From the IMG/VR virus record IMGVR_UViG_3300050821_002957, positions 1 to 15,191 of that record: 15,191 bases of DNA, one strand, 5' to 3'. The position numbers were made by a program, and so were the translations under genes. This DNA comes from a virus. Positions 1 to 15,191 of the stretch are shown piece after piece. The first letter of the stretch is position 1. Each line of letters starts with the position of its first letter. Under the pieces are notes generated by a model, which was given only the letters and a program-made list of their open reading frames with translations, was not told the origin of the DNA and searched no databases.

Positions 1-2
1 GA

Positions 3-140
3 AAGGCAGAGCGTGCAGCCGCCGAAAAGAAGAGACGTGAAGAGAAGGCCGCAATCGAAAAGAAAGAAGACAACGACCTGAAGACTTACGAGAGACTGAA
101 GAAAAAGTATGAACATAACGAATCACAATCTGACGTTTAA
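3..140 (+). CDS. 3' end of an upstream gene (partial), Lys/Glu/Arg-rich coiled-coil-like tail
   Basis: Open frame from the window edge: KAERAAAEKKRREEKAAIEKKEDNDLKTYERLKKKYEHNESQSDV, stop TAA at 138-140. 5' end is outside the window. Confidence 0.35.
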   Translation, partial: KAERAAAEKKRREEKAAIEKKEDNDLKTYERLKKKYEHNESQSDV

Positions 141-402
141 TCTCACGGTCAAAGAAGTCGGCGTCTGGATGGCTGCACTTCGCATGGCGGCGAAACACCA
201 CACCATGTGCATTCCGTGGGACTCCAATCCGTTTCTCGAACAACACAAAGAATTAGTGCGGCTGACCGGCTACGGCACTGGTGACCATGAAGATTTGTAC
301 AACGCTCTCGCAAAGAAAGCCAAAGAACAAGGGATCAGTTCGATGCAGGAGTTAAAAAATGCCGGAAAGAAACTTGAAGAGCTATATCCAGAACATGCTT
401 AA
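109..402 (+). CDS. hypothetical protein (97 aa)
   Basis: ORF-track frame. Start overlaps the upstream partial ORF by 32 nt, so the true start may be an internal Met. No recognisable motif. Confidence 0.4.
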   Translation: MNITNHNLTFNLTVKEVGVWMAALRMAAKHHTMCIPWDSNPFLEQHKELVRLTGYGTGDHEDLYNALAKKAKEQGISSMQELKNAGKKLEELYPEHA

Positions 403-688
403 TGAGGCCAAAGCAGCGTTTCTGATGGGCCACGGCTGGAAAGAAGTGGCAGCGGACGGCGGCGGAACCTGCTGGACCCCGGCCATCTACTTCCTTCAGA
501 CACCCCTTTATTTCGCATTAGACGACGCCTACGCCCTCGAAACGGTCGGGGAGGGTATCCACGCCTACGCCGGTCAAATCGCCCTGGAGGAAGCGCTACG
601 GGCCGAAGACCTGCGAAAAATGGACGAAGCTGAGGCCAAATATTTCGCCGAAACTGGCAAGCGCCACGGAATCTATCCAAACTGGTGA
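395..688 (+). CDS. hypothetical protein (about 98 aa)
   Basis: The ORF-track frame begins at 359. I prefer ATG 395, which overlaps the upstream TAA (ATGCTTAA coupling) and gives MLNEAKAAF...YPNW. Confidence 0.45.
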   Translation: MLNEAKAAFLMGHGWKEVAADGGGTCWTPAIYFLQTPLYFALDDAYALETVGEGIHAYAGQIALEEALRAEDLRKMDEAEAKYFAETGKRHGIYPNW

Positions 689-724
689 AAACAAAGGTGA
701 TAAACTGTTAAGATAGATAGGTAC

Positions 725-952
725 ATGCCTATCATCAATGTACCCTCGCCATCGCCAATGTCCGACTACCAAAAGGTCCAATTTGCGACCGAAGTAGCCT
801 TCAATTCACTCCTGGACGAAGCCAAAAAGCTCGGCCTGCCTCTGGAGCCGGTCATGGGCCTGATGTACCTTCCTACTTCAAAGCTAACAAGTGACTTTCA
901 AACGGCTTGCAGAGCCATTTTGGATGCTCTAAAAACGCCTCAAGAAAATTAG
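725..952 (+). CDS. hypothetical protein (75 aa)
   Basis: ORF with AGGT a few nt upstream of the ATG. No motif recognised. Confidence 0.45.
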   Translation: MPIINVPSPSPMSDYQKVQFATEVAFNSLLDEAKKLGLPLEPVMGLMYLPTSKLTSDFQTACRAILDALKTPQEN

Positions 953-996
953 ATACATCTATTGACTTCCAATTTGGAATTTGATAGCATGTATTC
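948..996 (+). promoter_or_regulatory. conserved early-promoter cassette, copy 1
   Basis: Palindrome-like TAGATACATCTA, then -35 TTGACT (962-967), 17-nt spacer, -10 TAGCAT (985-990). ATG at 997 lies 6 nt after the -10, so the mRNA should be leaderless. Confidence 0.6.
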
Positions 997-1446
997 ATGA
1001 GCGAATACACTGAAGCGAAATTAGACGGATCGAAAGTCATCGCCCAATTTGTTCTTGGCGGCAACTCTACCTTCACTGTGGTCTCGAAGCGCACCGGCTC
1101 CAGGCTGACGTTCAAGGTTGGATTTTGGGAAGAACGTAACATGTACATCGTCAAAGTTCTGACCGGCCCGGACAATGAAAACGACTACAGAAAGCTCGGC
1201 AAGATCAAAAACGGCATCTTCTCTTTGACTGATGCGGCTCGGGAGAACGGCTTCACCGTCGAGACTCGTTCCTTCAGCGTATTCTCCTGGCTGCTCCGCA
1301 ATCTCCAGTCCGAAAAGATCGACGATCAAATTGAAATCTGGCACGCTGGTCGCTGTGGCCGTTGCGGACGTAAGCTGACGGTGCCTGAGAGCATCGAGAC
1401 TGGTCTAGGACCGGAATGCGCTGAGAAAGGTTTTGGTGGTTTCTAG
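997..1446 (+). CDS. phage protein with a C-terminal CxxCG...GxGPEC zinc-ribbon motif (DUF6011-like)
   Basis: 149-aa ORF ending ...GRCGRCGRKLTVPESIETGLGPECAEKGFGGF. I recognise the CxxC...S...GxGPxC tail as a common phage C-terminal motif. Directly downstream of promoter copy 1. Confidence 0.6.
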   Translation: MSEYTEAKLDGSKVIAQFVLGGNSTFTVVSKRTGSRLTFKVGFWEERNMYIVKVLTGPDNENDYRKLGKIKNGIFSLTDAARENGFTVETRSFSVFSWLLRNLQSEKIDDQIEIWHAGRCGRCGRKLTVPESIETGLGPECAEKGFGGF

Positions 1447-1493
1447 TAGATACATCTATTGACATTGATCCCGAAACGAGGTACACTTTAATC
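1444..1493 (+). promoter_or_regulatory. conserved early-promoter cassette, copy 2
   Basis: TAGATACATCTA (1447-1458), -35 TTGACA (1459-1464), 17-nt spacer, -10 TACACT (1482-1487), ATG at 1494. Confidence 0.6.
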
Positions 1494-1661
1494 ATGACAA
1501 ACGAAATGATTTGGCAAAACATGACCGACGAACAAAGAAGGGCCGTCCTCGATCAATTCACTATGACTTCCGACATTCCTTCCGACATCAAGTGGGATCA
1601 TCTGGACCACGGAACACGGTCGGCGATCATCTTCACTGGAACGGTCGAGGGAATGAAATGA
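1494..1661 (+). CDS. small hypothetical protein (55 aa, leaderless)
   Basis: ATG 1494 sits 6 nt after the -10. Translation MTNEMIWQNMTDEQRRAVLDQFTMTSDIPSDIKWDHLDHGTRSAIIFTGTVEGMK. Below the ORF-track length cutoff. Confidence 0.45.
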   Translation: MTNEMIWQNMTDEQRRAVLDQFTMTSDIPSDIKWDHLDHGTRSAIIFTGTVEGMK

Positions 1662-1747
1662 TCGTCCTCCTTGCCGTCCTCAAAATTCAGGCTATGTTTT
1701 ACGGTTTGCGTCTGTTATTCTATATCAAGGTGAACCCAAATGACTAA
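1658..1747 (+). CDS. mini hydrophobic peptide (29 aa)
   Basis: ATG overlaps the upstream TGA (ATGA). MIVLLAVLKIQAMFYGLRLLFYIKVNPND is a single predicted TM helix. Weak support. Confidence 0.25.
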   Translation: MIVLLAVLKIQAMFYGLRLLFYIKVNPND

Positions 1748-1979
1748 CCTTCTCATTTCGCTCGGGGCTGCTGTCATGTGGCTTCTTCGGGTCCAAGAGT
1801 TAAAGTCTGCATTGCCGGAAGAATGCACGATGCTTCCGTCTGAGGGCCGCAGCTTCATCAATCTCCAACATTATGACCCGGACACGATCACTCGAATGTC
1901 AAGTGAGAATTATGAAGCTACGCATACTGCGGCTACTCCTGAAGTGGTCGTACTATCTGAAAATCCAACGGCTGAGTAA
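1740..1979 (+). CDS. hypothetical protein (79 aa)
   Basis: ORF overlaps the previous stop and has an N-terminal hydrophobic segment. Confidence 0.4.
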   Translation: MTNLLISLGAAVMWLLRVQELKSALPEECTMLPSEGRSFINLQHYDPDTITRMSSENYEATHTAATPEVVVLSENPTAE

Positions 1980-2048
1980 TTGGCTCTGGCATCGTAAGAT
2001 GGACGAGTTTTATCGGACGGTTCACCATCAGTCCGACTACGGCTGGTA

Positions 2049-2077
2049 ATTCCAAAATCTCATGCTATGATATTGGC
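2049..2077 (+). promoter_or_regulatory. extended -10 promoter (TGCTATGAT) for the downstream membrane protein
   Basis: TGcTATGAT, then 6 nt, then ATG 2078. The -35 is weak. Same leaderless geometry as the cassette family. Confidence 0.35.
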
Positions 2078-2560
2078 ATGAACATTCTAAGAAACGTATT
2101 GTTAGCGATGCTTCTTGTTGTAGGGATCGGATATTTGATTTCGCTGTTGCCTCCTCCACATCCTCGACACCACAAAGTCAAAATAGAAAAACTGAAGAAT
2201 GGCCAGTATGCCTACAAGGACAAGAAAGGCAACTGGTGGTTTTACGCCAAAAAAGTTGCAAAGGCTGGGAGTCAAACCGATTTTGATTTCGACTTTAATT
2301 TCACCGGAGCCGAGTTTGGTAAGTCAGCGAGTGGATCGGTGCGTATGCCTTCGGGCGGTTCATGGGTTCGTGCGTCAAATCCTCCCAAGCCGGAAGAAAT
2401 CGAAGAAGAGATTGAAGTGTCTGTCGAAGAGAGCGTCACAGGCGAACCGGAAGGGGACACTGACGACGGCGCAGATGCCGATTCAAGCGATTCTGGCGGC
2501 GATGGCGGCGACGGCGGGGGAGATGGCGGTGGGGATGGTGGAGGCGACGGCGGCGAGTAA
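2078..2560 (+). CDS. membrane-anchored protein with an acidic Gly/Asp-repeat C-terminal tail
   Basis: N-terminal TM helix (LLAMLLVVGIGYLISLL), central Lys-rich region, then a D/E-rich stretch ending in SGGDGGDGGGDGGGDGGGDGGE. Confidence 0.55.
   Translation: MNILRNVLLAMLLVVGIGYLISLLPPPHPRHHKVKIEKLKNGQYAYKDKKGNWWFYAKKVAKAGSQTDFDFDFNFTGAEFGKSASGSVRMPSGGSWVRASNPPKPEEIEEEIEVSVEESVTGEPEGDTDDGADADSSDSGGDGGDGGGDGGGDGGGDGGE
2492..2557 (+). repeat. in-frame GGC/GAT tandem repeat encoding (G)nD
   Basis: GGCGATGGCGGCGACGGCGGGGGAGATGGCGGTGGGGATGGTGGAGGCGACGGCGGC, an imperfect 9-12 nt periodicity. The PPSPPP-encoding minus-strand ORF (2272-2631) is its mirror image. Confidence 0.6.
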
Positions 2561-2593
2561 TTGACGCTATCCATCCTTGTGGTAGGATAGGTC
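2561..2593 (+). promoter_or_regulatory. promoter of the cassette family without the palindrome
   Basis: -35 TTGACG (2561-2566), then TGgTAGGAT as an extended -10 (2580-2588), ATG at 2594 five nt later. Confidence 0.4.
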
Positions 2594-3112
2594 ATGTCCC
2601 CAAAGACTGACATGTTCGGAACGCCGGTCATCGATTCATTTCGTGACGACTATCGTTTCCTCAGCAATTTTTATGTTGCACCTGTCTCTCTTTGGGGAAT
2701 TAACTTTCCTTCGTCCGAACATGCCTATCAATGGGCCAAGACAGATGACGAGCTTGAAAAGAAGTTCGTACTCTTCAAGCAGCTTCCGCATGTCCAGGGA
2801 TATCGTGTTATCTCGACTTCTCCCGGCCAAGCGAAGCGTGTAGGTAAGACAGTAACAAAACGTGAAGACTGGGATTTGATTCGTCCTGGCATCATGTTGG
2901 AAATTTTGAGAGCCAAGTTTAGTCAGAATCCCGATCTCAAAGAATTACTCCTGGCGACCGGCGATGCAATTCTCATTGAAGGCAACACATGGCACGACAA
3001 CGACTGGGGCCACTGTACGTGTGAGAACTGCATTACCAAGAAAAAATCCAATATGCTTGGTGCTCTGCTTATGCAGGTTCGAGAAGAATTACAAAATGAA
3101 AGACAAGACTAA
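2594..3112 (+). CDS. NADAR / YbiA (DUF1768) family protein, candidate ADP-ribosyl-guanine glycohydrolase
   Basis: 172 aa. FLSNFY...SSEHAYQWAK...LRAKFSQNPDLKELLLATGDAILIEGN...WG...NMLGALLMQVREEL lines up motif-for-motif with E. coli YbiA (FSNFA...SEHYFQAQKF...LRAKFEQH..LRALLLAT...LVE...WG...NRLGYLLMELREQL). Confidence 0.8.
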   Translation: MSPKTDMFGTPVIDSFRDDYRFLSNFYVAPVSLWGINFPSSEHAYQWAKTDDELEKKFVLFKQLPHVQGYRVISTSPGQAKRVGKTVTKREDWDLIRPGIMLEILRAKFSQNPDLKELLLATGDAILIEGNTWHDNDWGHCTCENCITKKKSNMLGALLMQVREELQNERQD

Positions 3113-3398
3113 AAACGCAATCGAAAAAAAGCTAACCAAAGTAGAAGAGTTGGTTTCTGACATCAGAGTTTTGATGACAGAACAAGAAACCTTACCAATT
3201 TTGTTGACCGAATATGATACTTGGTTGGTTCCTCGGCGAGTCGAATTTTGTGAAAACTGCATGAACATCAAAGCACAAGTAGGATATGCCGAAGTTGACA
3301 TTGAGGACTACAAGAAGGATACAAACTGTATGCCGAATGTCACATGGTGTCGTACATGTGGAGAGACCGGCAGTATCGGTGTCCTTACTGAGTCCTAA
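3096..3398 (+). CDS. small Zn-ribbon protein (CxxC...CxxC), 100 aa
   Basis: The ORF-track frame 2964-3398 overlaps the NADAR gene. Internal ATG 3096 (MKDKTKNAIEKK...) has GAGAAG upstream and overlaps NADAR by only 17 nt. Cys pairs FCENC...CRTCGETG. Confidence 0.5.
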   Translation: MKDKTKNAIEKKLTKVEELVSDIRVLMTEQETLPILLTEYDTWLVPRRVEFCENCMNIKAQVGYAEVDIEDYKKDTNCMPNVTWCRTCGETGSIGVLTES

Positions 3399-3406
3399 AT
3401 AGCAAC

Positions 3407-3652
3407 ATGCTTCTCCAGCACCCTCGCATCTATCTGTTCAGTGCAGCGCTCACCGTGATCAATTTAATCACGTTCTGTATCTGTGTCTACAATGGAAACG
3501 CTACAGGGATTGCGTGGAACGGCGTCTTCCTCATTTTTAATCTCATCGCAACCATTGGCAACTTCCGTATTCGTCATCATCGTGCTATACTACGTGAAGA
3601 ACAGAAAATGGAACGGCGAAATCAACTCATACGTTTGACCATCGGCGAGTAG
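3407..3652 (+). CDS. small membrane protein with two predicted TM helices
   Basis: 81 aa with two hydrophobic helices and a basic C-terminus. No good RBS. Confidence 0.4.
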   Translation: MLLQHPRIYLFSAALTVINLITFCICVYNGNATGIAWNGVFLIFNLIATIGNFRIRHHRAILREEQKMERRNQLIRLTIGE

Positions 3653-3663
3653 TTTCTACTTGT

Positions 3664-3756
3664 GGTGGCGTGGTGTATGGTTGCACAGCCTGCCTTATAA
3701 GCAGGGTCGCACTAGATGAGTGCCCGGACTGAGTTCAATTCTCAGCGCCACTACCA
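3664..3756 (+). tRNA. type-II-like tRNA (long variable arm), anticodon UAU by loop position (formally Ile, AUA-decoding); atypical
   Basis: Acceptor GGTGGCG pairs with CGCCACT (G1-U72). D-arm GTGT/GCAC with GG in the loop. Anticodon stem CCTGC/GCAGG, loop CTTATAA. The 23-nt variable region holds hairpin GCACT-AGATG-AGTGC. T-arm CTGAG-TTCAATT-CTCAG, discriminator A, encoded CCA. There is one extra nt between the D and anticodon stems. Confidence 0.5.
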
Positions 3757-3763
3757 AAATTTT

Positions 3764-4327
3764 ATGACATCTCTTGAAAAAGCAGGACAAGCAAAGAACC
3801 TTCTCATTGGCATCGCAGAGAAACTGACGGTGCCTGCGCTGACAGATGCCTGCAAGGTCGTTCTGTACGATCCAACCTTCGTGACGCAATACGGCTCGTC
3901 TGGAAAGCACCACAGCTATCCTGGTGGCTTGGCGATGCATACTCTCGAAGTGACTCAGTTTGCCTTGAAGATGGCCGAGATGCTTCCGATGGCCGATACT
4001 GACGTGGTTGCGACGGCGGCAATTTTTCACGACTACACGAAGATCAAGGAATACGCACCAGCAGCACAATTTGGTGATGGTGGATCGGTACGCCATACCA
4101 ACTATCGAAAATTCATTCGTCACGTTGCCGGAAGTCACGCTGCATTCATGATCGCCATCGAAGGAAAACGAGTGCCGGAAGAAAAGGTGTTCCGCATCGA
4201 GCACGCAATCCTGGCACATCATGGTTCGATTGCAGCAGGAAGTCCGATAGATATGGCGCTCATTGAAGCCTACATCGTGCATTACGCAGATTCATTCAGT
4301 GCAAAATTTGGTCCATCGAAAGGATAA
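3764..4327 (+). CDS. HD-domain phosphohydrolase (YhaM-like HD motif set)
   Basis: Motifs GKHHSYPGGLAMHTLEV, AAIFHDYTK, HAILAHHG and ...D fit the H..HD...H...H...D metal ligands. The ORF-track start 3716 lies inside the tRNA variable arm, so I place the start at ATG 3764, 8 nt after the tRNA CCA. Confidence 0.65.
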   Translation: MTSLEKAGQAKNLLIGIAEKLTVPALTDACKVVLYDPTFVTQYGSSGKHHSYPGGLAMHTLEVTQFALKMAEMLPMADTDVVATAAIFHDYTKIKEYAPAAQFGDGGSVRHTNYRKFIRHVAGSHAAFMIAIEGKRVPEEKVFRIEHAILAHHGSIAAGSPIDMALIEAYIVHYADSFSAKFGPSKG

Positions 4328-4328
4328 A

Positions 4329-4808
4329 ATGTTACTCGACACAATCAACACTCACATTACCGAAGCAATGAAGGCAAAGGATGGTCCACGTCTGACGACA
4401 CTCCGTGCAATCAAGGTGAAGATTGACGCCTTCATGAAAGAACGCATCAATCGAGTCGAAGTGACCGAGGCTAACGAACAGAAGATCCTGGAGAACCTCG
4501 TCAAGCAGCGCCTTGACTCAATTGAACTGTTCGAGAAAGGCAAGCGTTTGGATTTGGTTGCAATTGAAAGAGCCGAACTTGCGCTCATCAAAAGCTACAT
4601 GCCAAAGGATGCGACCGGCGTAGAGATCGACGCTGCAATTGAACTAGCATTACCGGGACTGCTTTCGACGGGTCCCAAGGCAATTGGTATGGTCATGGCC
4701 GATGTCAAAAAGAGATTGGCTGGCAAACGAGTGGATGGAAAGATTCTCTCAGAAAAAATCAAGGCTCGTTTCGTTGTCGCTGAAGCGAACGGTGAGACAT
4801 TCCATTGA
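4329..4808 (+). CDS. yqeY: GatB/YqeY-domain protein
   Basis: The ORF-track start 4263 overlaps the HD gene. ATG 4329 has AAGGA upstream. LTTLRAIKVKIDAFMKE...EANEQKILENLVKQRLDSIELFEKGKRLDLVAIERAELALIKSYMP...TGPKAIGMVMADVKKRLAGKRVDGKILSEKIKARF matches the YqeY/GatB C-terminal pattern along its length. Confidence 0.75.
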   Translation: MLLDTINTHITEAMKAKDGPRLTTLRAIKVKIDAFMKERINRVEVTEANEQKILENLVKQRLDSIELFEKGKRLDLVAIERAELALIKSYMPKDATGVEIDAAIELALPGLLSTGPKAIGMVMADVKKRLAGKRVDGKILSEKIKARFVVAEANGETFH

Positions 4809-4996
4809 TCGACTGGAAAAGTCTTGGCCTGAAAAAACCTCAGAAAAGAGCCTCTAGCAATCGTGACTCTAATTCGAGACTTCAGGTCAAGTGCATCTGT
4901 GGTCACAAGCAGTTTGAACATGAGTGTCATCCAGACGAACATTGTTACAAATGTGAATGCCGACAATTCAAGAGGTCCCGTCGTCCAACTGGATAG
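4805..4996 (+). CDS. Cys/His-rich mini-protein (TTG start), doubtful
   Basis: 63-aa ORF with KCICGHKQFEHECHPDEHCYKCEC. It starts at TTG and its last 23 nt run into tRNA-Arg(CCG). Confidence 0.25.
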   Translation: MIDWKSLGLKKPQKRASSNRDSNSRLQVKCICGHKQFEHECHPDEHCYKCECRQFKRSRRPTG

Positions 4997-5049
4997 GACG
5001 CTACCCTCCGAAGGTTGAAATAGTGGTTCAAATCCACTCGGGACTACCA
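4974..5049 (+). tRNA. tRNA-Arg (anticodon CCG)
   Basis: Acceptor GGTCCCG/CGGGACT (G1-U72). D-arm GTCC-AACTGGATA-GGAC. Anticodon stem CTACC/GGTTG with one U-U mismatch, loop CTCCGAA. T-arm AGTGG-TTCAAAT-CCACT. Discriminator A plus CCA. Confidence 0.7.
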
Positions 5050-5062
5050 TCTAGATATTGAC

Positions 5063-5251
5063 ATGAATCTGAATGACAAACCAATTAGCGTCACTGGCTC
5101 TGCCAATCCTGTAATCACTCGTGAAGAATATTATAAACGTCGTGAAAAATCTTCTAGCTACATGCCCGGATTAAAGAAAGGCGATCTCCCAAAGCGTATC
5201 AGGACAGCGGAAGATGATATTGCCGACATGCTTTTTGATCTAACAGAATGA
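5063..5251 (+). CDS. hypothetical protein (62 aa)
   Basis: ORF beginning 14 nt after the tRNA. A degenerate cassette, TAGATATTGACATG, lies upstream. Confidence 0.35.
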   Translation: MNLNDKPISVTGSANPVITREEYYKRREKSSSYMPGLKKGDLPKRIRTAEDDIADMLFDLTE

Positions 5252-5586
5252 CCCAAAAAGAACGACAAGCCATATTTGACGTAGTAGGTCAGGAAGCCGA
5301 TTTCCAAAAAATCTCAGGTTCCAATTTTGAAGTCGCTCTCAAGGAATGGTTTGATGATACTGAGAAACCATTCCCGCCCTATATTACAGACATTATCGTC
5401 CAGGTAATTGTTCAGTTAGCCAAGAAACCGCAATTTGAACACTATAAACTCGACGGAGATGTAGCTTTAAGAGCATTTGAACGGGCACTAAAACGAAGAC
5501 CATTTCGTATGATGGAAAATCCCTTTCCGGCTTTGACGAGAGTCGTCTTCGACAGTTTCATACGGCAGATACAACTAAAAAGATAG
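5248..5586 (+). CDS. hypothetical protein (112 aa)
   Basis: ATGA overlap with the upstream ORF. No motif recognised. Confidence 0.5.
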   Translation: MTQKERQAIFDVVGQEADFQKISGSNFEVALKEWFDDTEKPFPPYITDIIVQVIVQLAKKPQFEHYKLDGDVALRAFERALKRRPFRMMENPFPALTRVVFDSFIRQIQLKR

Positions 5587-5636
5587 CTCTGCTATATACC
5601 TGTAGAAGTCGAATCTAATCTTCGACCTAGAGGAAT

Positions 5637-5999
5637 ATGAGCAAAGAAAAAGTACAAGACGACAAAATTTTGTTGCGTCTGCCGTCCACTCTGACATCGG
5701 CAGTTGATCAAGTTATTAGAGAGCAAATCCCAGAGTTAAACCGCTCGGAATTCATCCGCAGGGCAGTTCGTTTTACGCTGGATCATGTCGAAGAATTCAA
5801 GACCAGTGATGCGGCGACCGTTCACGAAAAAACAGAAGTCGAGAGTGTTGCAAAGATCAATGCTGTCCGTGACCTTCGTGACCAATTACTACAATACAAG
5901 GATCTGTTGCAGAAGGAACCACAGACTCCAAACACCATCAAACAACTTTCGTTTTTGATCTTTTTGATCGGCGAAATGATCTTTAAGATGAACGATTAA
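5637..5999 (+). CDS. ribbon-helix-helix (CopG/Arc/MetJ-like) DNA-binding protein
   Basis: GAGGA RBS 7 nt upstream. The N-terminal ILLRLPSTLTSAVDQVIREQIPELNRSEFIRRAVRFTLD is a beta-strand followed by two helices, the typical RHH layout. A hairpin GTCGAA-N7-TTCGAC sits just upstream. Confidence 0.6.
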   Translation: MSKEKVQDDKILLRLPSTLTSAVDQVIREQIPELNRSEFIRRAVRFTLDHVEEFKTSDAATVHEKTEVESVAKINAVRDLRDQLLQYKDLLQKEPQTPNTIKQLSFLIFLIGEMIFKMND

Positions 6000-6026
6000 T
6001 AAACCGACGCTTGTATACATATTTGC

Positions 6027-6662
6027 ATGGAACAAAAACCGTGCCAAGTGTATTACTGTTACAAAACAACCAACATCATAAATGGAAAGGTTTACATTGG
6101 GTTCGCCAGTGATCCCAAAACTCGCTGGCGAAATCATAGAAGAGACGCTGAAACAGGTCGAGGATTTGCCCTCGCCGCCGCAATCCGAAAGTATGGATGG
6201 GACGCATTTGAATTTGAAGTGCTCTGTTGTGGTAAAGACAAGCGTATGATGTTGGAACACGTCGAGCCTGCATTGATTGAACAATATCAAAGTCGCATTG
6301 AACAAAATGGCTACAATGTAACTCGGGGCGGCGAACACATCCCGGTAGGCAATCGAGGTGGCTCTAAAAAAGGTCGTATTGTTTCTGAAGAATCTCGATG
6401 TAAAATGAGTGCTGCTAAGAAAGGCAATGTTAATGGAGCAGGTAACAAAGGCCATAAACATTCCGATGAAACTAAACAAAAAATGGCAGCAGTCCATCTG
6501 GGTCATTTCGTTTCTGAAGAGACACGCAAGAAAATCGGTAATCGTTATCCTCGCACAGAAGAAGAAAAGCAACACCTAAGCAAAATAAATACGGGCCGAA
6601 AACATTCAGAAGAAACCAAACAGAAGATGGCAGCGACAAGACGAGCAATGAGGATTTTGTGA
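6027..6662 (+). CDS. GIY-YIG homing endonuclease with C-terminal NUMOD3-type repeats (Seg/I-TevI-like)
   Basis: VYYCYKTTNIINGKVYIGFASDPKTRWRNHR is the GIY-YIG motif with the Arg and His-Arg. It is followed by four copies of SEE(S/T)(R/K)xK(M/I)... spanning 6375-6660 (SEESRCKMSAAKKGN, SDETKQKMAAVHLGH, SEETRKKIGNRY, SEETKQKMAATRRA). Confidence 0.8.
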   Translation: MEQKPCQVYYCYKTTNIINGKVYIGFASDPKTRWRNHRRDAETGRGFALAAAIRKYGWDAFEFEVLCCGKDKRMMLEHVEPALIEQYQSRIEQNGYNVTRGGEHIPVGNRGGSKKGRIVSEESRCKMSAAKKGNVNGAGNKGHKHSDETKQKMAAVHLGHFVSEETRKKIGNRYPRTEEEKQHLSKINTGRKHSEETKQKMAATRRAMRIL

Positions 6663-6819
6663 CGTGTGGAAGTACATCAAGGCACTCTTTACCCATCGGC
6701 CAAAATTCTATCGAGGCACCACAGATAAATTTTGCCACAGCCTTACCGCAAAGGGCAGGCGCATTCGTATTTTCGGATTCGCCTGGGGACCTTTTATGAT
6801 TGCATTCCATACACTCGAC

Positions 6820-6847
6820 TTGACAAATAGCAGACCTTCTGTAAAAT
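6820..6847 (+). promoter_or_regulatory. sigma70-like promoter TTGACA-16-TAAAAT
   Basis: Near-consensus hexamers at 6820-6825 and 6842-6847, with an AAGGG SD and ATG 6863 downstream. Confidence 0.45.
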
Positions 6848-6862
6848 ACAAAGGGTACTCCA

Positions 6863-6973
6863 ATGAAGCTGACTGAAATGGAAAAGAAAATTTTGTTCGA
6901 TGCAATAACACTGTACAAAAACAGAGCAGAGACGATGTTGATACTACCATCTCGGCACTTCGTAGCAAATTGA
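6863..6973 (+). CDS. mini-ORF (36 aa), doubtful
   Basis: MKLTEMEKKILFDAITLYKNRAETMLILPSRHFVAN. Its only support is the strong promoter and SD just upstream. Confidence 0.25.
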   Translation: MKLTEMEKKILFDAITLYKNRAETMLILPSRHFVAN

Positions 6974-7047
6974 AACGTGCTCTGGCTGAAGGAACCAACA
7001 GCACCGGCCCAAGATGATCTATTTGGTTGGAATGCGAAAATAATACC

Positions 7048-12653: not shown

Positions 12654-13238
12654 ATGGAAACGTACAACGTAGCTGACCTGATGGAACAGATGAAATCTGG
12701 CCGTTATCAATATGGCATGGGCAATTCGACTACGAGCATCATCCGTTCGATCACCGAAACGGACGGCAAGTACTTAGTCGTTGGTGACACGTTTGCCTGC
12801 TCTGGTGACGAGAATCTTCAACTTTCGGTCACGCCGATCCTGGTACAATTGAAGCCGATGGTCGAAGATTACTTTTCCGGGGAATGCGCCGCTTTCGAGA
12901 CCCTGGCTGAGGCTCTAAAACACGCCAGTGTCAAACGGATCACTGGACGCATCCTGACGGCCACCGACGAATTCAAATTGAAAGCTGGAGTGGTCGAGAA
13001 AAAGAAGTTCTCGAAGAAACGCCTGGAAGCAGTCCTGGAGCAGAACGGATTCGGAAAGAGCGTAAGCTACGAGGCGTATGGACGTGACGTGCGTGCTTTC
13101 ATCGGAACTGACAAACGGACGCAACTGGAAGCGTTTCTGCGCCTTCTGGGGCAGTCTGTAGACGAGTCCTACGCTCCTGGTCGCAACGTCGTCGAGTGCA
13201 AAGTGACTTTCTTCAAGGCATGGCACTGGGATGAGTAG
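12654..13238 (+). CDS. hypothetical protein (194 aa)
   Basis: Leaderless ORF. No motif recognised. Confidence 0.55.
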   Translation: METYNVADLMEQMKSGRYQYGMGNSTTSIIRSITETDGKYLVVGDTFACSGDENLQLSVTPILVQLKPMVEDYFSGECAAFETLAEALKHASVKRITGRILTATDEFKLKAGVVEKKKFSKKRLEAVLEQNGFGKSVSYEAYGRDVRAFIGTDKRTQLEAFLRLLGQSVDESYAPGRNVVECKVTFFKAWHWDE

Positions 13239-13396
13239 ATCCGAACTGCGCCGGATGTCAATGGCGAAACTGATCGATCTCGCACAGGAAAATGAAATCT
13301 TCGTCTGGTTCGATGCCCACCGGGAAGGCATTTTGGAAGCGCTGGTGGACAAGCTGGTCGAAGAAAAAAGTGACGTTTGGTGTGCATATTTTTAGA
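13231..13396 (+). CDS. small hypothetical protein (54 aa)
   Basis: ATG 13231 overlaps the end of the previous gene by 8 nt. MSRSELRRMSMAKLIDLAQENEIFVWFDAHREGILEALVDKLVEEKSDVWCAYF. Its stop TAG is the first triplet of the next palindrome. Confidence 0.35.
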
Positions 13397-13439
13397 TGCA
13401 TCTATTGACTTTGGGGCCGATCTGCGGTAGACTTTAAGT
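13393..13439 (+). promoter_or_regulatory. conserved early-promoter cassette, copy 5 (perfect palindrome)
   Basis: TAGATGCATCTA (13393-13404), -35 TTGACT (13405-13410), 17-nt spacer, -10 TAGACT (13428-13433), ATG 13440. Confidence 0.6.
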
Positions 13440-13700
13440 ATGAAAGCGATCAACACTTGGAAGATGGCAAACGGACAGACCGCAGAATTGCTTGGCGTTT
13501 GGGAAGAGAAACAATCATGGGGCGCTACTTGGAAGATGAACCTAGAGCGCTACAAGAGTACCAAAACCGAACGCACTTTACGGTACTTGATTTGCCACGA
13601 AGGTGGTCAATCGTATCTGGTGGGTGAATACAAATCTCTCAAAGCTGCATTGAAAGACATGGCTTCGTTTTCCAACTACACAAAGAAAGTGACGGCATAA
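13440..13700 (+). CDS. hypothetical protein (86 aa)
   Basis: Leaderless ORF downstream of cassette 5. Confidence 0.5.
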   Translation: MKAINTWKMANGQTAELLGVWEEKQSWGATWKMNLERYKSTKTERTLRYLICHEGGQSYLVGEYKSLKAALKDMASFSNYTKKVTA

Positions 13701-13704
13701 TTCC

Positions 13705-14103
13705 ATGAGCAAAACATACCGCAACACTCTGTTAGATGCACCCAAGCCAGAAGCACTCACCGTCCAGGTTCTCTATACGACTTACGGTGGCGTCGTTTCT
13801 GACTGCACCAACGGTGGCGTGACGGCCAAGTCTGAACGGGTTATCCTGGTCCCCATCGGCGCAGATGTTCCGACCGATTCCAAGCTGCCGGTGCTCAAGG
13901 TGGTTTGTCGTTATTTTGGTGGTCTTTCATACCTGCACGCAGAGCCAGTGACACCCGTAGGCAAAAATCTGATCGGCTACATGGCTGGTGGCAATTTCGT
14001 CTACTCCTGTGACAGCCGTTTCCGTACCTGGGTTTCTCAGTATCCGATCAGCGTCCATGATCGTGTCGAGACGCAGGCACAGTACAATTCGCTTTCGGTC
14101 TAA
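13705..14103 (+). CDS. hypothetical protein (132 aa)
   Basis: ORF 4 nt after the previous stop. Confidence 0.5.
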   Translation: MSKTYRNTLLDAPKPEALTVQVLYTTYGGVVSDCTNGGVTAKSERVILVPIGADVPTDSKLPVLKVVCRYFGGLSYLHAEPVTPVGKNLIGYMAGGNFVYSCDSRFRTWVSQYPISVHDRVETQAQYNSLSV

Positions 14104-14107
14104 CCAT

Positions 14108-14245
14108 ATGTCAAAACGTTGGCCCAAAACCACTCGAAAGACTTTGATTCCCGAACTTAAAGCACTCTGGCCCATGTTCACCATTGCTGCATTTGCAGTT
14201 GTTGCTATCTTCTTCACAGCTTGGTATACGTCGGTACAAAAATGA
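14108..14245 (+). CDS. mini membrane protein (45 aa, one TM helix)
   Basis: MSKRWPKTTRKTLIPELKALWPMFTIAAFAVVAIFFTAWYTSVQK. ATGA coupling to the next gene. The ORF-track entry 13988-14245 is this frame extended upstream into the previous gene. Confidence 0.35.
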   Translation: MSKRWPKTTRKTLIPELKALWPMFTIAAFAVVAIFFTAWYTSVQK

Positions 14246-14835
14246 AAACTTTCACACCAGAAACCACCAAGATCCTTACCACCGAATTGAACGTGGCATT
14301 GGAATTCGTCAACGGAATTTTTCCCTTGATTCCTCTCGCCCGGATCGTCGAACTGATCAATGCGTACAATCTCGACGCAAGTCAGATTGTTCATCAACTC
14401 GGACCAGACAATGGGCGTATGGTCGTGCCGGTCGCCGCCGACATCTTCTTTGTCATGTCCTGGTATCGCTTTGAGACTGGTACATTTGAAATTGTCTGCT
14501 ACGCCACCAGCAACTTCGATGATTACGAGAAACCTTTCACCGCAGTCTACAAGGCACAAGAAAGAGCCGCTCGTCTGCGTCGTCTGAATTCTACGCTTCG
14601 TAATCTTCCTCCTTATTTCAACGGCAAGGGTCATGCTTTTGCTTGTGTCGAGAACCATATCATCAGCGCCGGGTTTGATCATCGAGAGTTTCAAGACGAT
14701 ACGACTAGCGGCAAATTTAGTTGTATGGGTGAGCAAGGCCGGATCATGTCGGACATCAGCAACAATGCTTTTATTGTCGTAACATGGTACAAGATGCCGT
14801 CAGGAAATTACGAGATCATTGCATATGCCAGCTAA
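14242..14835 (+). CDS. hypothetical protein with an internal duplication
   Basis: The ORF-track start is 14221. ATG 14242 overlaps the upstream TGA. The two halves share DIFFVMSWYRFETGTFEIVCYATS and NAFIVVTWYKMPSGNYEIIAYAS. Confidence 0.55.
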   Translation: MKTFTPETTKILTTELNVALEFVNGIFPLIPLARIVELINAYNLDASQIVHQLGPDNGRMVVPVAADIFFVMSWYRFETGTFEIVCYATSNFDDYEKPFTAVYKAQERAARLRRLNSTLRNLPPYFNGKGHAFACVENHIISAGFDHREFQDDTTSGKFSCMGEQGRIMSDISNNAFIVVTWYKMPSGNYEIIAYAS

Positions 14836-15191
14836 AACAGCACACCAAATCAAATTGATCAAAAAGATCACTCACCTAAAGACTGCAATCGAAGCTGGTG
14901 ACACCACTTTGCAGCTAGAATTGAAGAAGCTAGAAAACGATCTGAAAAGTTCTCTTGGATCGGTCGGACAAAAAAAGAAACAACAAAAACCAAAGCCGGT
15001 CCAGGTCAATCACGCCTGCCGAGATGCAGTGACCGGAGAATGGAAGCTGTGTGAAGTCTGCCAAGGCCGAGTCCACAAACACGGCTGTAAGACAATCAAG
15101 AAAGAGTGGGATTGCTGCAAAAAGCGTCATACCAAGATGGGTCTGGAGTGGGTGGGAAAGTCAGACGCCGACTACTACGAACGCAAGACGA
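14825..15191 (+). CDS. Cys/His-rich protein, 5' partial (runs off the window end)
   Basis: ATG 14825 overlaps the end of the previous gene. MPAKTAHQIKLIKK...HACRDAVTGEWKLCEVCQGRVHKHGCKTIKKEWDCCKKRH... stays open to the end of the window. Confidence 0.45.
   Translation, partial: MPAKTAHQIKLIKKITHLKTAIEAGDTTLQLELKKLENDLKSSLGSVGQKKKQQKPKPVQVNHACRDAVTGEWKLCEVCQGRVHKHGCKTIKKEWDCCKKRHTKMGLEWVGKSDADYYERKT

Follow-up and report, generated by a model that had tools for sequence, protein, structure and literature searches.

A stretch of viral DNA 15,191 nucleotides (nt) long, corresponding to positions 1 to 15,191 of the IMG/VR record IMGVR_UViG_3300050821_002957 (hereafter the window), encodes at 2594-3112 a single-domain protein of the NADAR family whose active site, judged from residue conservation, is supported as catalytically intact. 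We expect with good confidence that this protein hydrolyses ADP-ribosylated guanine (G-ADPr) in vitro, because all tested NADARs do so and the active site is intact; whether counter-defence against a DarT1-like toxin is the function for which it was selected is, in our judgement, evenly poised. The source is a jumbo phage of an uncultured lineage. The identical NADAR protein is present on a 404,282-bp ENA metagenome contig and on a 34-kb Logan contig, and megablast of the whole window retrieved none of 50,697 phage records, so the phage has no cultured close relative.

Results

The NADAR gene and its fold

The gene is an ATG-to-TAA open reading frame (ORF) of 172 amino acids (aa) ending in the stop codon at 3110-3112. 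Its product matches Pfam PF08719 (DUF1768) with E 1.3e-25 (91 bits, cutoff 35.1) over profile positions 8-163 of 163, so that the NADAR assignment made in a preliminary description, from the letters alone, was borne out by an exact reading frame and a family match. PF08719 was the sole Pfam family at E <=0.01; PF08010, the family of T4 gp30.3, was not matched. The protein also matches PHROG 1017 (function unknown, E 4e-40), and it scores 85.1 bits against the NCBIfam model TIGR02464, "riboflavin biosynthesis intermediates N-glycosidase", above the cutoff of 73.7; this model spans the shared domain and does not separate the activities. The first ATG is taken as the start because the closest homolog (72% identity) has the same N-terminus, MS(P/T)KTDMFG, and the core domain starts about 10 residues after it.

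A phmmer search of PDB sequences retrieved Escherichia coli YbiA (2b3w, E 5e-16) and the Phytophthora nicotianae NADAR (PnNADAR; 8bau, E 7e-7). An AlphaFold2 model computed from an alignment of 40 homologs had a mean predicted local distance difference test (pLDDT) score of 96.4 and a predicted template modelling (TM) score of 0.90, and when it was compared with the PDB by Foldseek only 2b3w (TM 0.73) and 8bau (TM 0.71) were significant, with no others at E <0.5, as expected of the NADAR fold, in which small β-sheets flank an α-helical core.

The block-for-block match to YbiA noted in the preliminary description holds, with 37% identity to the K-12 protein (158 aa, E 2e-24, BLASTP) and with the quoted motifs aligning as SEHAYQ/SEHYFQ, DWG/YWG and NMLGALLMQVRE/NRLGYLLMELRE (window protein/YbiA). 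The label "YbiA-family" can be kept in the broad sense of NADARs with a glutamate in the last strand (E129), but not in the narrow sense. In all-against-all comparison the window protein scored 80 bits with YbiA and 109-136 bits with nine phage, archaeal-type and metagenomic NADARs, among them AdfN-Bas32 of a T5-like phage. Pfam scanning of the larger window ORFs gave no riboflavin genes (ribA/ribD), and none was flagged up to 10 kb on either side at the window's own locus (L001) or at the loci of four related contigs. By closest relatives and by riboflavin-gene context, the protein thus appears to lie outside the narrow clade of housekeeping riboflavin N-glycosidases to which YbiA belongs.

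Conservation of the active site

Eight residues of PnNADAR contact ADP-ribose: E43, K50, R79, W89, R93, E125, D130 and W133 (Schuller et al. 2023, PMC11543638). When these were mapped through the 8bau alignment, after correction of a two-residue offset in the PDB chain, seven of the eight were found in the window protein (E42, K49, W93, R97, E129, D135 and W138); the eighth, R79, is replaced by K85 at a variable position. Among 127 aligned NADAR homologs, E42, K49, E129, D135 and G139 are invariant (127/127), and W93 and W138 are nearly so, W138 being present in 120. E42 and K49 correspond to E43 and K50 of PnNADAR and, with the same E-x6-K spacing, to E36 and K43 of AdfN-T4 (numbered from the translated T4 gene 30.3), the residues that were mutated by Johannesman et al. 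(PMC11825919). The roles of the catalytic residues are those described in PMC11543638 and PMC11825919.

E129, within LIEGN, aligns with E125 of PnNADAR and with the glutamate of the YbiA VEH motif. The residue at this last-strand position differs among NADAR types, being Glu in YbiA and stand-alone proteins, Asp in BC4488 and DarG1, and His in the T4 "phage NADAR" (PMC11543638, PMC11125620, PMC12945103), and because it is Glu129 here, the DarG1 and T4 types are excluded for the window protein.

A clade-specific insertion and a predicted zinc knuckle

Two features set the protein apart from well-studied NADARs. The first is an insertion of about 25 aa, modelled as a helix followed by a β-hairpin with strands at E61-66 and E69-74 (pLDDT >96). 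It occurs only in the nearest ~20 metagenomic homologs, and was absent from YbiA and, among the phage NADARs compared, from AdfN-Bas32 and those of UTK0009, BUDD, AR9, pf16 and Peregrin. This clade-specific hairpin may contribute to nucleic-acid binding.

The second lies in WHDNDWGHCTCENC (aa 134-146, window 2993-3031), where H134, C141, C143 and C146 adjoin the catalytic D135 and W138. His or Cys at position 134 together with C141, C143 and Cys or His at 146 was found in 107 of the 127 homologs, while 17 have Gly, Asn or Asp at 134, all of them missing the cysteine triad; no sequence combines G/N/D134 with the full triad, in counts that are not phylogenetically independent. Because residue 134 covaries with the triad, a four-ligand structural zinc site is predicted beside D135/W138, and this His/Cys3 knuckle probably holds a zinc ion. 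YbiA, AdfN-Bas32 and PnNADAR lack the knuckle in the sequences compared, and neither zinc nor cysteine is mentioned in the text of four NADAR papers.

A promoter fused to the start codon

The NADAR gene is preceded by a σ70-type promoter whose -35 element begins straight after the TAA (2558-2560) that closes the upstream ORF. Its extended -10 element consists of TG at 2580-2581 and the hexamer TAGGAT at 2583-2588, followed by aggtc and then the ATG. The pattern TTGACN-16/17-TAnnnT-5..7-ATG occurs eight times on the plus strand of the window and not once on the minus strand, against a mean of 0.027 and a maximum of 1 in 300 dinucleotide-preserving shuffles, and all eight units open ORFs of 55-194 aa. 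With eight copies against 0.027 expected, every one at an ORF start, the family of promoter-plus-start-codon units is real. The preliminary description had assigned the NADAR gene its own leaderless promoter of this cassette family, and this stands, with the qualification that the NADAR copy is atypical: it is without the palindromic TAGATRCATCTA box (TAGAT-nn-ATCTA), and its spacing is 16+5, 2 nt shorter than the 17+6 of the core cassettes. The box abuts the -35 element in five of the eight cassettes and resembles an operator to which a dimeric regulator would bind. It is also found ahead of the DUF6011 gene in L001 and in one of the related contigs (L007).

Leaderless geometry recurs before the NADAR gene in three of the four related contigs (L007, L011, L012 and L013), with hexamers and distances kept while the spacers diverged: TTTACG-16-TAGGAT-5-ATG in L007, TTGACG-16-TAGAAT-6-ATG in L012 and TTGACA-16-TATACT-6-ATG in L013. 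In L011, TTGACG-16-TACTAT is followed by a 29-nt leader. The alternative that TAGGAT, or the AGGA within it, is in fact a Shine-Dalgarno site was rejected as the main interpretation, since TAGAAT of L012 and TATACT of L013 cannot pair with the anti-Shine-Dalgarno sequence. A promoter of a leaderless message is the better interpretation because the geometry is kept while these two -10 elements cannot serve as Shine-Dalgarno sequences; AGGA inside TAGGAT could nevertheless act as a ribosome-binding site. Transcription should thus start at or beside the ATG. The host-type promoters suggest that the gene may lie in the early region, where the preliminary description had placed it. The promoter analysis suggests that this jumbo phage uses leaderless messenger RNAs heavily, which may hint at its host.

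Shine-Dalgarno sequences are weak or missing in front of most other genes in the window.

Genomic neighbourhood

The surroundings of the gene are phage-like, with nine transfer RNA (tRNA) genes, a GIY-YIG/NUMOD3 homing endonuclease, DUF6011, PHROG families and a short protein with an RF-1 domain (Table 1). The related large contigs share the syntenic order DUF6011, small ORFs, NADAR, 81-aa ORF, tRNA(UAU), HD-domain protein, with or without a YqeY-family protein, and tRNA island. The closest NADAR proteins are metagenomic, with 50-72% identity, and the gene is kept at this level of identity in the four related contigs, which argues for selection on it.

The NADAR gene, like the published AdfN genes, is an orphan, with no cognate toxin gene nearby. 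In the precomputed Pfam table none of the genes within about 10 kb of it in L001, nor those at the four related loci, carried a flagged ADP-ribosyltransferase (ART) domain, in an inspection that covered about 30 kb of the 404-kb genome, and no toxin-like family was found by PADLOC or NCBIfam in the immediate neighbours scanned. Outside this clade, NADAR genes lie beside RNase H and thymidylate synthase (T5-like phages), SbcC (AR9), a tRNA array (pf16) or unknown genes (BUDD and Peregrin), and in these neighbourhoods too no ART domain was flagged.

Three small ORFs surround the NADAR gene. Neither the 160-aa ORF upstream nor the 100-aa CxxC ORF that overlaps its end matched a known family, and tblastn placed neither of them in the four related contigs; in these, NADAR is directly followed by the 81-aa ORF, without the 100-aa ORF. 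The two flanking ORFs are thus regarded as window-specific insertions, and were rejected as partners of NADAR. The 81-aa ORF, likewise without a family match, is possibly membrane-embedded. At its position in L007 a gene has been called on the minus strand (8510-8776), and tblastn places the plus-strand homolog of the 81-aa ORF at 8528-8767, so the minus-strand call is probably spurious. L012 carries a minus-strand call at the corresponding position (7551-7853), where a plus-strand homolog was not detected.

The next gene encodes an HD-domain protein of the YhaM type. It matches YhaM in the PDB (9h3f, E 2.7e-15) over residues 140-281 only of the 321-residue chain, and the NCBIfam YhaM model with E 1.4e-15, far under the model cutoff. 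The NADAR-HD neighbourhood is kept in all four related contigs; as a general functional link the adjacency was rejected, being confined to this phage clade and missing in T5-like phages, AR9, BUDD, pf16 and Peregrin. The HD and YqeY genes are conserved beside tRNA genes in the related contigs, and a role of the two proteins in 3' trimming of tRNA precursors with encoded CCA is possible.

Between the 81-aa ORF and the HD gene lies a tRNA of 92-93 nt with the invariant anticodon loop CTTATAA (Ile AUA codon), and a long variable arm made of a 4-bp stem and a 7-nt loop with the conserved sequence AGAT[G/T]A. Five diverged contigs carry it at this one location, and RNAalifold found compensatory changes at 21 of its 28 pairs. 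In bacteria, this class-II shape is normally seen only with tRNAs for Leu, Ser, Tyr and Sec. The tRNA overlaps the annotated start of the HD ORF, and the ATG at 3764, just past the tRNA, is the likely start of the HD protein. In the tRNA island further downstream, the 3' ends inspected encode CCA, and related contigs carry similar sets rich in Arg, Lys and Ile; tRNAs for Lys and Arg are classic targets of anticodon nucleases. The RF-1-domain protein is embedded in the island, and is conserved in L001, L007 and L008.

Table 1. Coordinates of the features in the window and of tRNA(UAU) in related contigs
Feature	Position	Strand	Remarks
Promoter/ATG units (eight)	962-997, 1459-1494, 2561-2594, 9497-9532, 10676-10712, 11100-11135, 12619-12654, 13405-13440	+	
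Palindromic box TAGAT(A/G)CATCTA	950-961, 1447-1458, 11088-11099, 12607-12618, 13393-13404		Abuts -35 element
160-aa ORF	2078-2560	+	Hydrophobic N-terminus; acidic Gly/Asp-rich tail GDGGDGGGDGGGDGGGDGGE encoded by 9-nt repeats
σ70-type promoter of NADAR gene	2561..2593	+	-35 TTGACG 2561-2566, 16-nt spacer, extended -10 TGgTAGGAT, 5 nt, ATG 2594
NADAR coding sequence, single domain	2594..3112	+	ORF list, Pfam, PHROG, PDB sequence match, AlphaFold2
Catalytic helix S41-E42-H43-A44-Y45-Q46-W47-A48-K49	2714..2740	+	E42, 2717-2719; K49, 2738-2740
Insertion, ~25 aa (aa 51-75), DELEKKFVLFKQLPHVQGYRVISTS	2744..2818	+	Homolog alignment, AlphaFold2 model, pairwise alignment gaps
Second catalytic segment and predicted zinc knuckle	2978..3031	+	E129 (2978-2980), D135, W138; putative ligands H134, C141, C143, C146
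100-aa ORF, zinc-ribbon-like	3096-3398	+	Two CxxC pairs (EFCENC...WCRTCGE); overlaps last 17 nt of NADAR gene
81-aa ORF, long hydrophobic stretches	3407..3652	+	tblastn 65% identity (L007) and 39% (L011) at syntenic position
Class-II-shaped tRNA, anticodon UAU, CCA encoded	3664..3756	+	ARAGORN; Rfam 43.4 bits with permissive filters, missed by default filters
tRNA(UAU) counterparts	L007 8777-8868, L011 7775-7866, L012 7808-7899, L013 7916-8007		
HD-domain protein, YhaM type (3'-5' exoribonuclease HD domain)	3764..4327 (ORF opens 3716)	+	Pfam HD
YqeY-family protein	4329-4808		Follows HD protein
tRNA island	4974-9452		Arg CCG, ACG, TCT, CCT; Lys TTT, CTT; Ile GAT; Val TAC
GIY-YIG homing endonuclease, two NUMOD3 motifs	6027-6662	+	Direct repeats 6372-6406/6501-6535 and 6450-6490/6594-6634 are the repeated motif
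Truncated class-I release-factor-like protein, 170 aa	8644-9156	+	C-terminal end of PCRF and full RF-1 domain, E 3e-30

Discussion

Proposed counter-defence against a DarT1-like transferase

We propose the following mechanism. Host RNA polymerase with the primary sigma factor would read the TTGACG/TGgTAGGAT promoter, and the leaderless message would be translatable as soon as it is made. The product, a stand-alone ADP-ribosyl N-glycohydrolase, would hold the ADP-ribose moiety through K49, W93, R97, D135 and W138, as expected from homology, and reverse ADP-ribosylation at guanine N2 on phage DNA. Acting as an AdfN-type orphan, it would clear the guanine adducts that a host DarT1-like transferase sets on replicating phage DNA. 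Since its target is the modified product and not the toxin, such an enzyme would counter any guanine-directed transferase.

This proposal has direct precedent. Johannesman et al. (2025, PMC11825919) showed that ADP-ribose is taken off DNA, and DarTG1 overcome, by AdfN-T4 (gp30.3), AdfN-Bas32 and AdfN-Bas60. The last two, which are unrelated to gp30.3, neutralise DarT1 without other phage factors; AdfN-Bas32 does so in E. coli and also rescues phages RB69, T5 and Bas25 on hosts with DarTG1 (PMC11825919). The anti-DarT role put forward in the preliminary description is accordingly plausible for DarT1, the best argument being the 41% identity to AdfN-Bas32. Its extension to thymine and DarT2 is contradicted by published assays: four NADAR types associated with E. 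coli all hydrolyse G-ADPr in vitro and none ADP-ribosylated thymine (Cihlova et al. 2024, PMC11125620), and none of the three AdfN proteins acts on DarTG2 (PMC11825919). Removal of G-ADPr from DNA in vitro has been seen with every NADAR subfamily tested so far (PMC11125620, PMC12945103). The orphan setting, the host-type promoter kept in relatives and the retention of the gene in the related contigs also speak for the counter-defence proposal.

Several points weigh against the counter-defence proposal. Activity on G-ADPr is no guarantee of counter-defence, because YbiA and gp30.3 are active in vitro yet do not rescue cells from DarT1 toxicity (PMC11125620). The window protein is without the basic N-terminal extension proposed to bind single-stranded DNA in DarG1 (PMC11543638), it passes the TIGR02464 cutoff, and its conserved neighbours (tRNAs, the YhaM-type HD protein and YqeY) are related to RNA and not to DNA. 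Finally, Iyer et al. (2022, PMC9503650) made the case for small derivatives of ADP-ribose as the substrates of most phage NADARs.

The last argument leads to a different function, in which NADAR degrades small ADP-ribose-derived molecules such as cyclic ADP-ribose variants or ADP-ribose phosphates, be they immune signals or toxic by-products, and so blunts NAD-based immunity. Iyer et al. (PMC9503650) cite for it the correlation with genome size, the Macro, SLOG and Nudix domains that accompany NADARs, and fusions such as DUF4326-NADAR, of which P0098 among the homologs of the window protein is an example; the missing DarG1-type DNA-binding extension would fit as well. We consider this unlikely, as the cited NADAR literature reports no such activity and offers direct precedent only for base-linked ADP-ribose, and Macro, SLOG and Nudix partners were missing both from the larger window ORFs scanned with Pfam and from the domains flagged up to 10 kb on either side.

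A second candidate substrate is ADP-ribosylated RNA (guanosine or cytidine of tRNA, mRNA or rRNA), whose repair would shield translation and the phage tRNAs from an RNA-directed host transferase. NADARs do take G-ADPr off RNA in vitro, and YbiA-type and stand-alone members also act on ADP-ribosylated cytidine (PMC11833690, PMC12945103). The gene sits at the 5' edge of the tRNA island in all five related contigs, near tRNA(UAU), the YhaM-type HD protein and YqeY, and the NADAR gene of the Pseudomonas phage pf16 lies inside its tRNA array. This neighbourhood may be plain synteny of one phage clade, and in T5-like phages, AR9, BUDD and Peregrin the gene is found among DNA-metabolism or unknown genes with no tRNAs near; the HD protein is well enough explained by 3' trimming of CCA-encoded tRNAs, and the literature cited has no anti-phage system that ADP-ribosylates RNA guanine or cytidine, CmdT modifying adenine N6. 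We therefore rate an RNA substrate as slightly less probable still. Slightly more doubtful again is its most specific form, that the zinc knuckle and hairpin mark a distinct NADAR subtype, expressed leaderless at the head of the tRNA island with tRNA(UAU), the YhaM-type protein and YqeY, which acts on ADP-ribosylated tRNA or mRNA guanosine or cytidine and counters an undescribed defence by an RNA-base-directed transferase rather than DarT1 on DNA.

NADAR could also serve as an antidote or regulator for an ADP-ribosyltransferase of the phage itself, keeping phage nucleic acid free of self-modification. A YbiA-type NADAR is the antitoxin to a non-DarT transferase, YarT (PMC11125620), and co-expression of NADAR and ART in T4-like phages was noted by Iyer et al. 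(PMC9503650). The T4 gene 30.3 (128307-128765) lies about 3 kb from alt (123454-125502), the gene of a virion ADP-ribosyltransferase, a proximity in keeping with joint use of some phage NADARs and phage ARTs. As the ART domain was flagged neither around the gene in the inspected part of the genome nor at the related loci, we hold this to be improbable. Least probable is metabolite repair, in which the protein would, like YbiA, hydrolyse ribosylaminopyrimidine intermediates of riboflavin synthesis without any role in conflict: the TIGR02464 match, the identity to YbiA and the same annotation on many phage homologs speak for it, but YbiA itself hydrolyses G-ADPr (PMC11125620) so that the family model cannot discriminate the activities, the window protein scores higher with phage NADARs including AdfN-Bas32, ribA/ribD are missing from the loci scanned, and control of flavin damage would be of no obvious use to a lytic jumbo phage.

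Comparison with known NADARs

Phage NADARs are commonplace, with homologs of the window protein found by tblastn in 506 phage records, all at <60% identity, and NADARs reported in >48% of medium and jumbo phages (Iyer et al. 2022, PMC9503650). The hosts given in the annotations of the NADAR-bearing phages span many genera, including Streptomyces, Vibrio, Salmonella, Escherichia, Bacillus and Xanthomonas. NADARs are used on the bacterial side as well, since defence-system libraries contain NADAR models (DS-32 and PDC-M42C). Against these models the window protein shows generic domain homology only: it scores 62.4 bits against the model of the DS-32 anti-phage NADAR (NCBIfam NF053876), below the cutoff of 240, and the PADLOC model PDC-M42C, a NADAR-like candidate, matches YbiA and AdfN-Bas32 too.

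DarG1 belongs to the same superfamily as the window protein, and both are expected to strip ADP-ribose from guanine N2. The two are unrelated in sequence, and DarG1 has Asp in place of Glu129, a basic N-terminal β-β-α extension and a neighbouring DarT1 gene (PMC11543638), none of which is seen with the window protein. A DarG1-type identity was rejected, as PADLOC gave only the generic PDC-M42C and PDB sequence and profile searches only YbiA and PnNADAR. AdfN-T4 (PF08010) shares with the window protein the proposed role in counter-defence to DarTG1 and the E-x6-K spacing, but the two are essentially unalignable (23% over 80 aa, E 0.004, BLASTP), and AdfN-T4 has His for the last-strand Glu and is fully active only together with a T-even-specific factor (PMC11825919), whereas the window protein keeps Glu129. 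PnNADAR, solved in complex with ADP-ribose (8bau), has the same fold, with 27% identity in the structural alignment and conserved ADP-ribose contacts; it differs in being a eukaryotic stand-alone protein with N-terminal and internal extensions of its own and no cysteine triad.

YbiA is the best match of solved structure. Like the window protein it is a "naked" core domain with Glu at the last strand and with the SEHxxQ and N-LG-LLM-R blocks. It differs in being chromosomal, in a LexA-controlled operon, and in giving no in vivo rescue from DarT1 (PMC11125620), and it lacks both the insertion and the cysteine triad (YWGDGGHGKGKN).

The nearest experimentally validated protein found is AdfN-Bas32 of phage IrisVonRoten (bas32_0066), with 41% identity over 163 aligned positions (E 4e-36), in a comparison with validated AdfN proteins that covered AdfN-Bas32 and AdfN-T4. 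Both are orphan single-domain phage NADARs with the same catalytic E, K, E, D and W, no N-terminal extension and no adjacent toxin gene. AdfN-Bas32 is without the 25-aa hairpin insertion and the His/Cys3 knuckle, having TWGD...WGVCRGIGDN instead, and its gene has DNA-metabolism neighbours, RNase H and thymidylate synthase, in the genome of a T5-like phage, whereas the window gene is found at the tRNA island of a jumbo phage. Anti-DarT1 activity has been demonstrated for AdfN-Bas32 (PMC11825919), and we infer it for the window protein.

Phage NADARs that act as anti-DarTG1 factors have already been published under the name AdfN (Cihlova et al. 2024, PMC11125620; Johannesman et al. 2025, PMC11825919), and NADARs are found in roughly half of large phages, so the window protein introduces no new concept. 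The promoter analysis has a value independent of this, documenting σ70-type promoters fused to start codons, and with them predicted leaderless genes, in a 404-kb phage. If active, the window protein gives the AdfN class a further member, from a jumbo phage of an uncultured lineage, and its predicted zinc knuckle and its hairpin would make it a natural variant with which to probe why some NADARs protect in vivo and others work only in vitro, a question left open by both studies (PMC11125620, PMC11825919). By sequence, the protein is most reasonably filed with the AdfN-type orphan NADARs that are not of the T4 kind.

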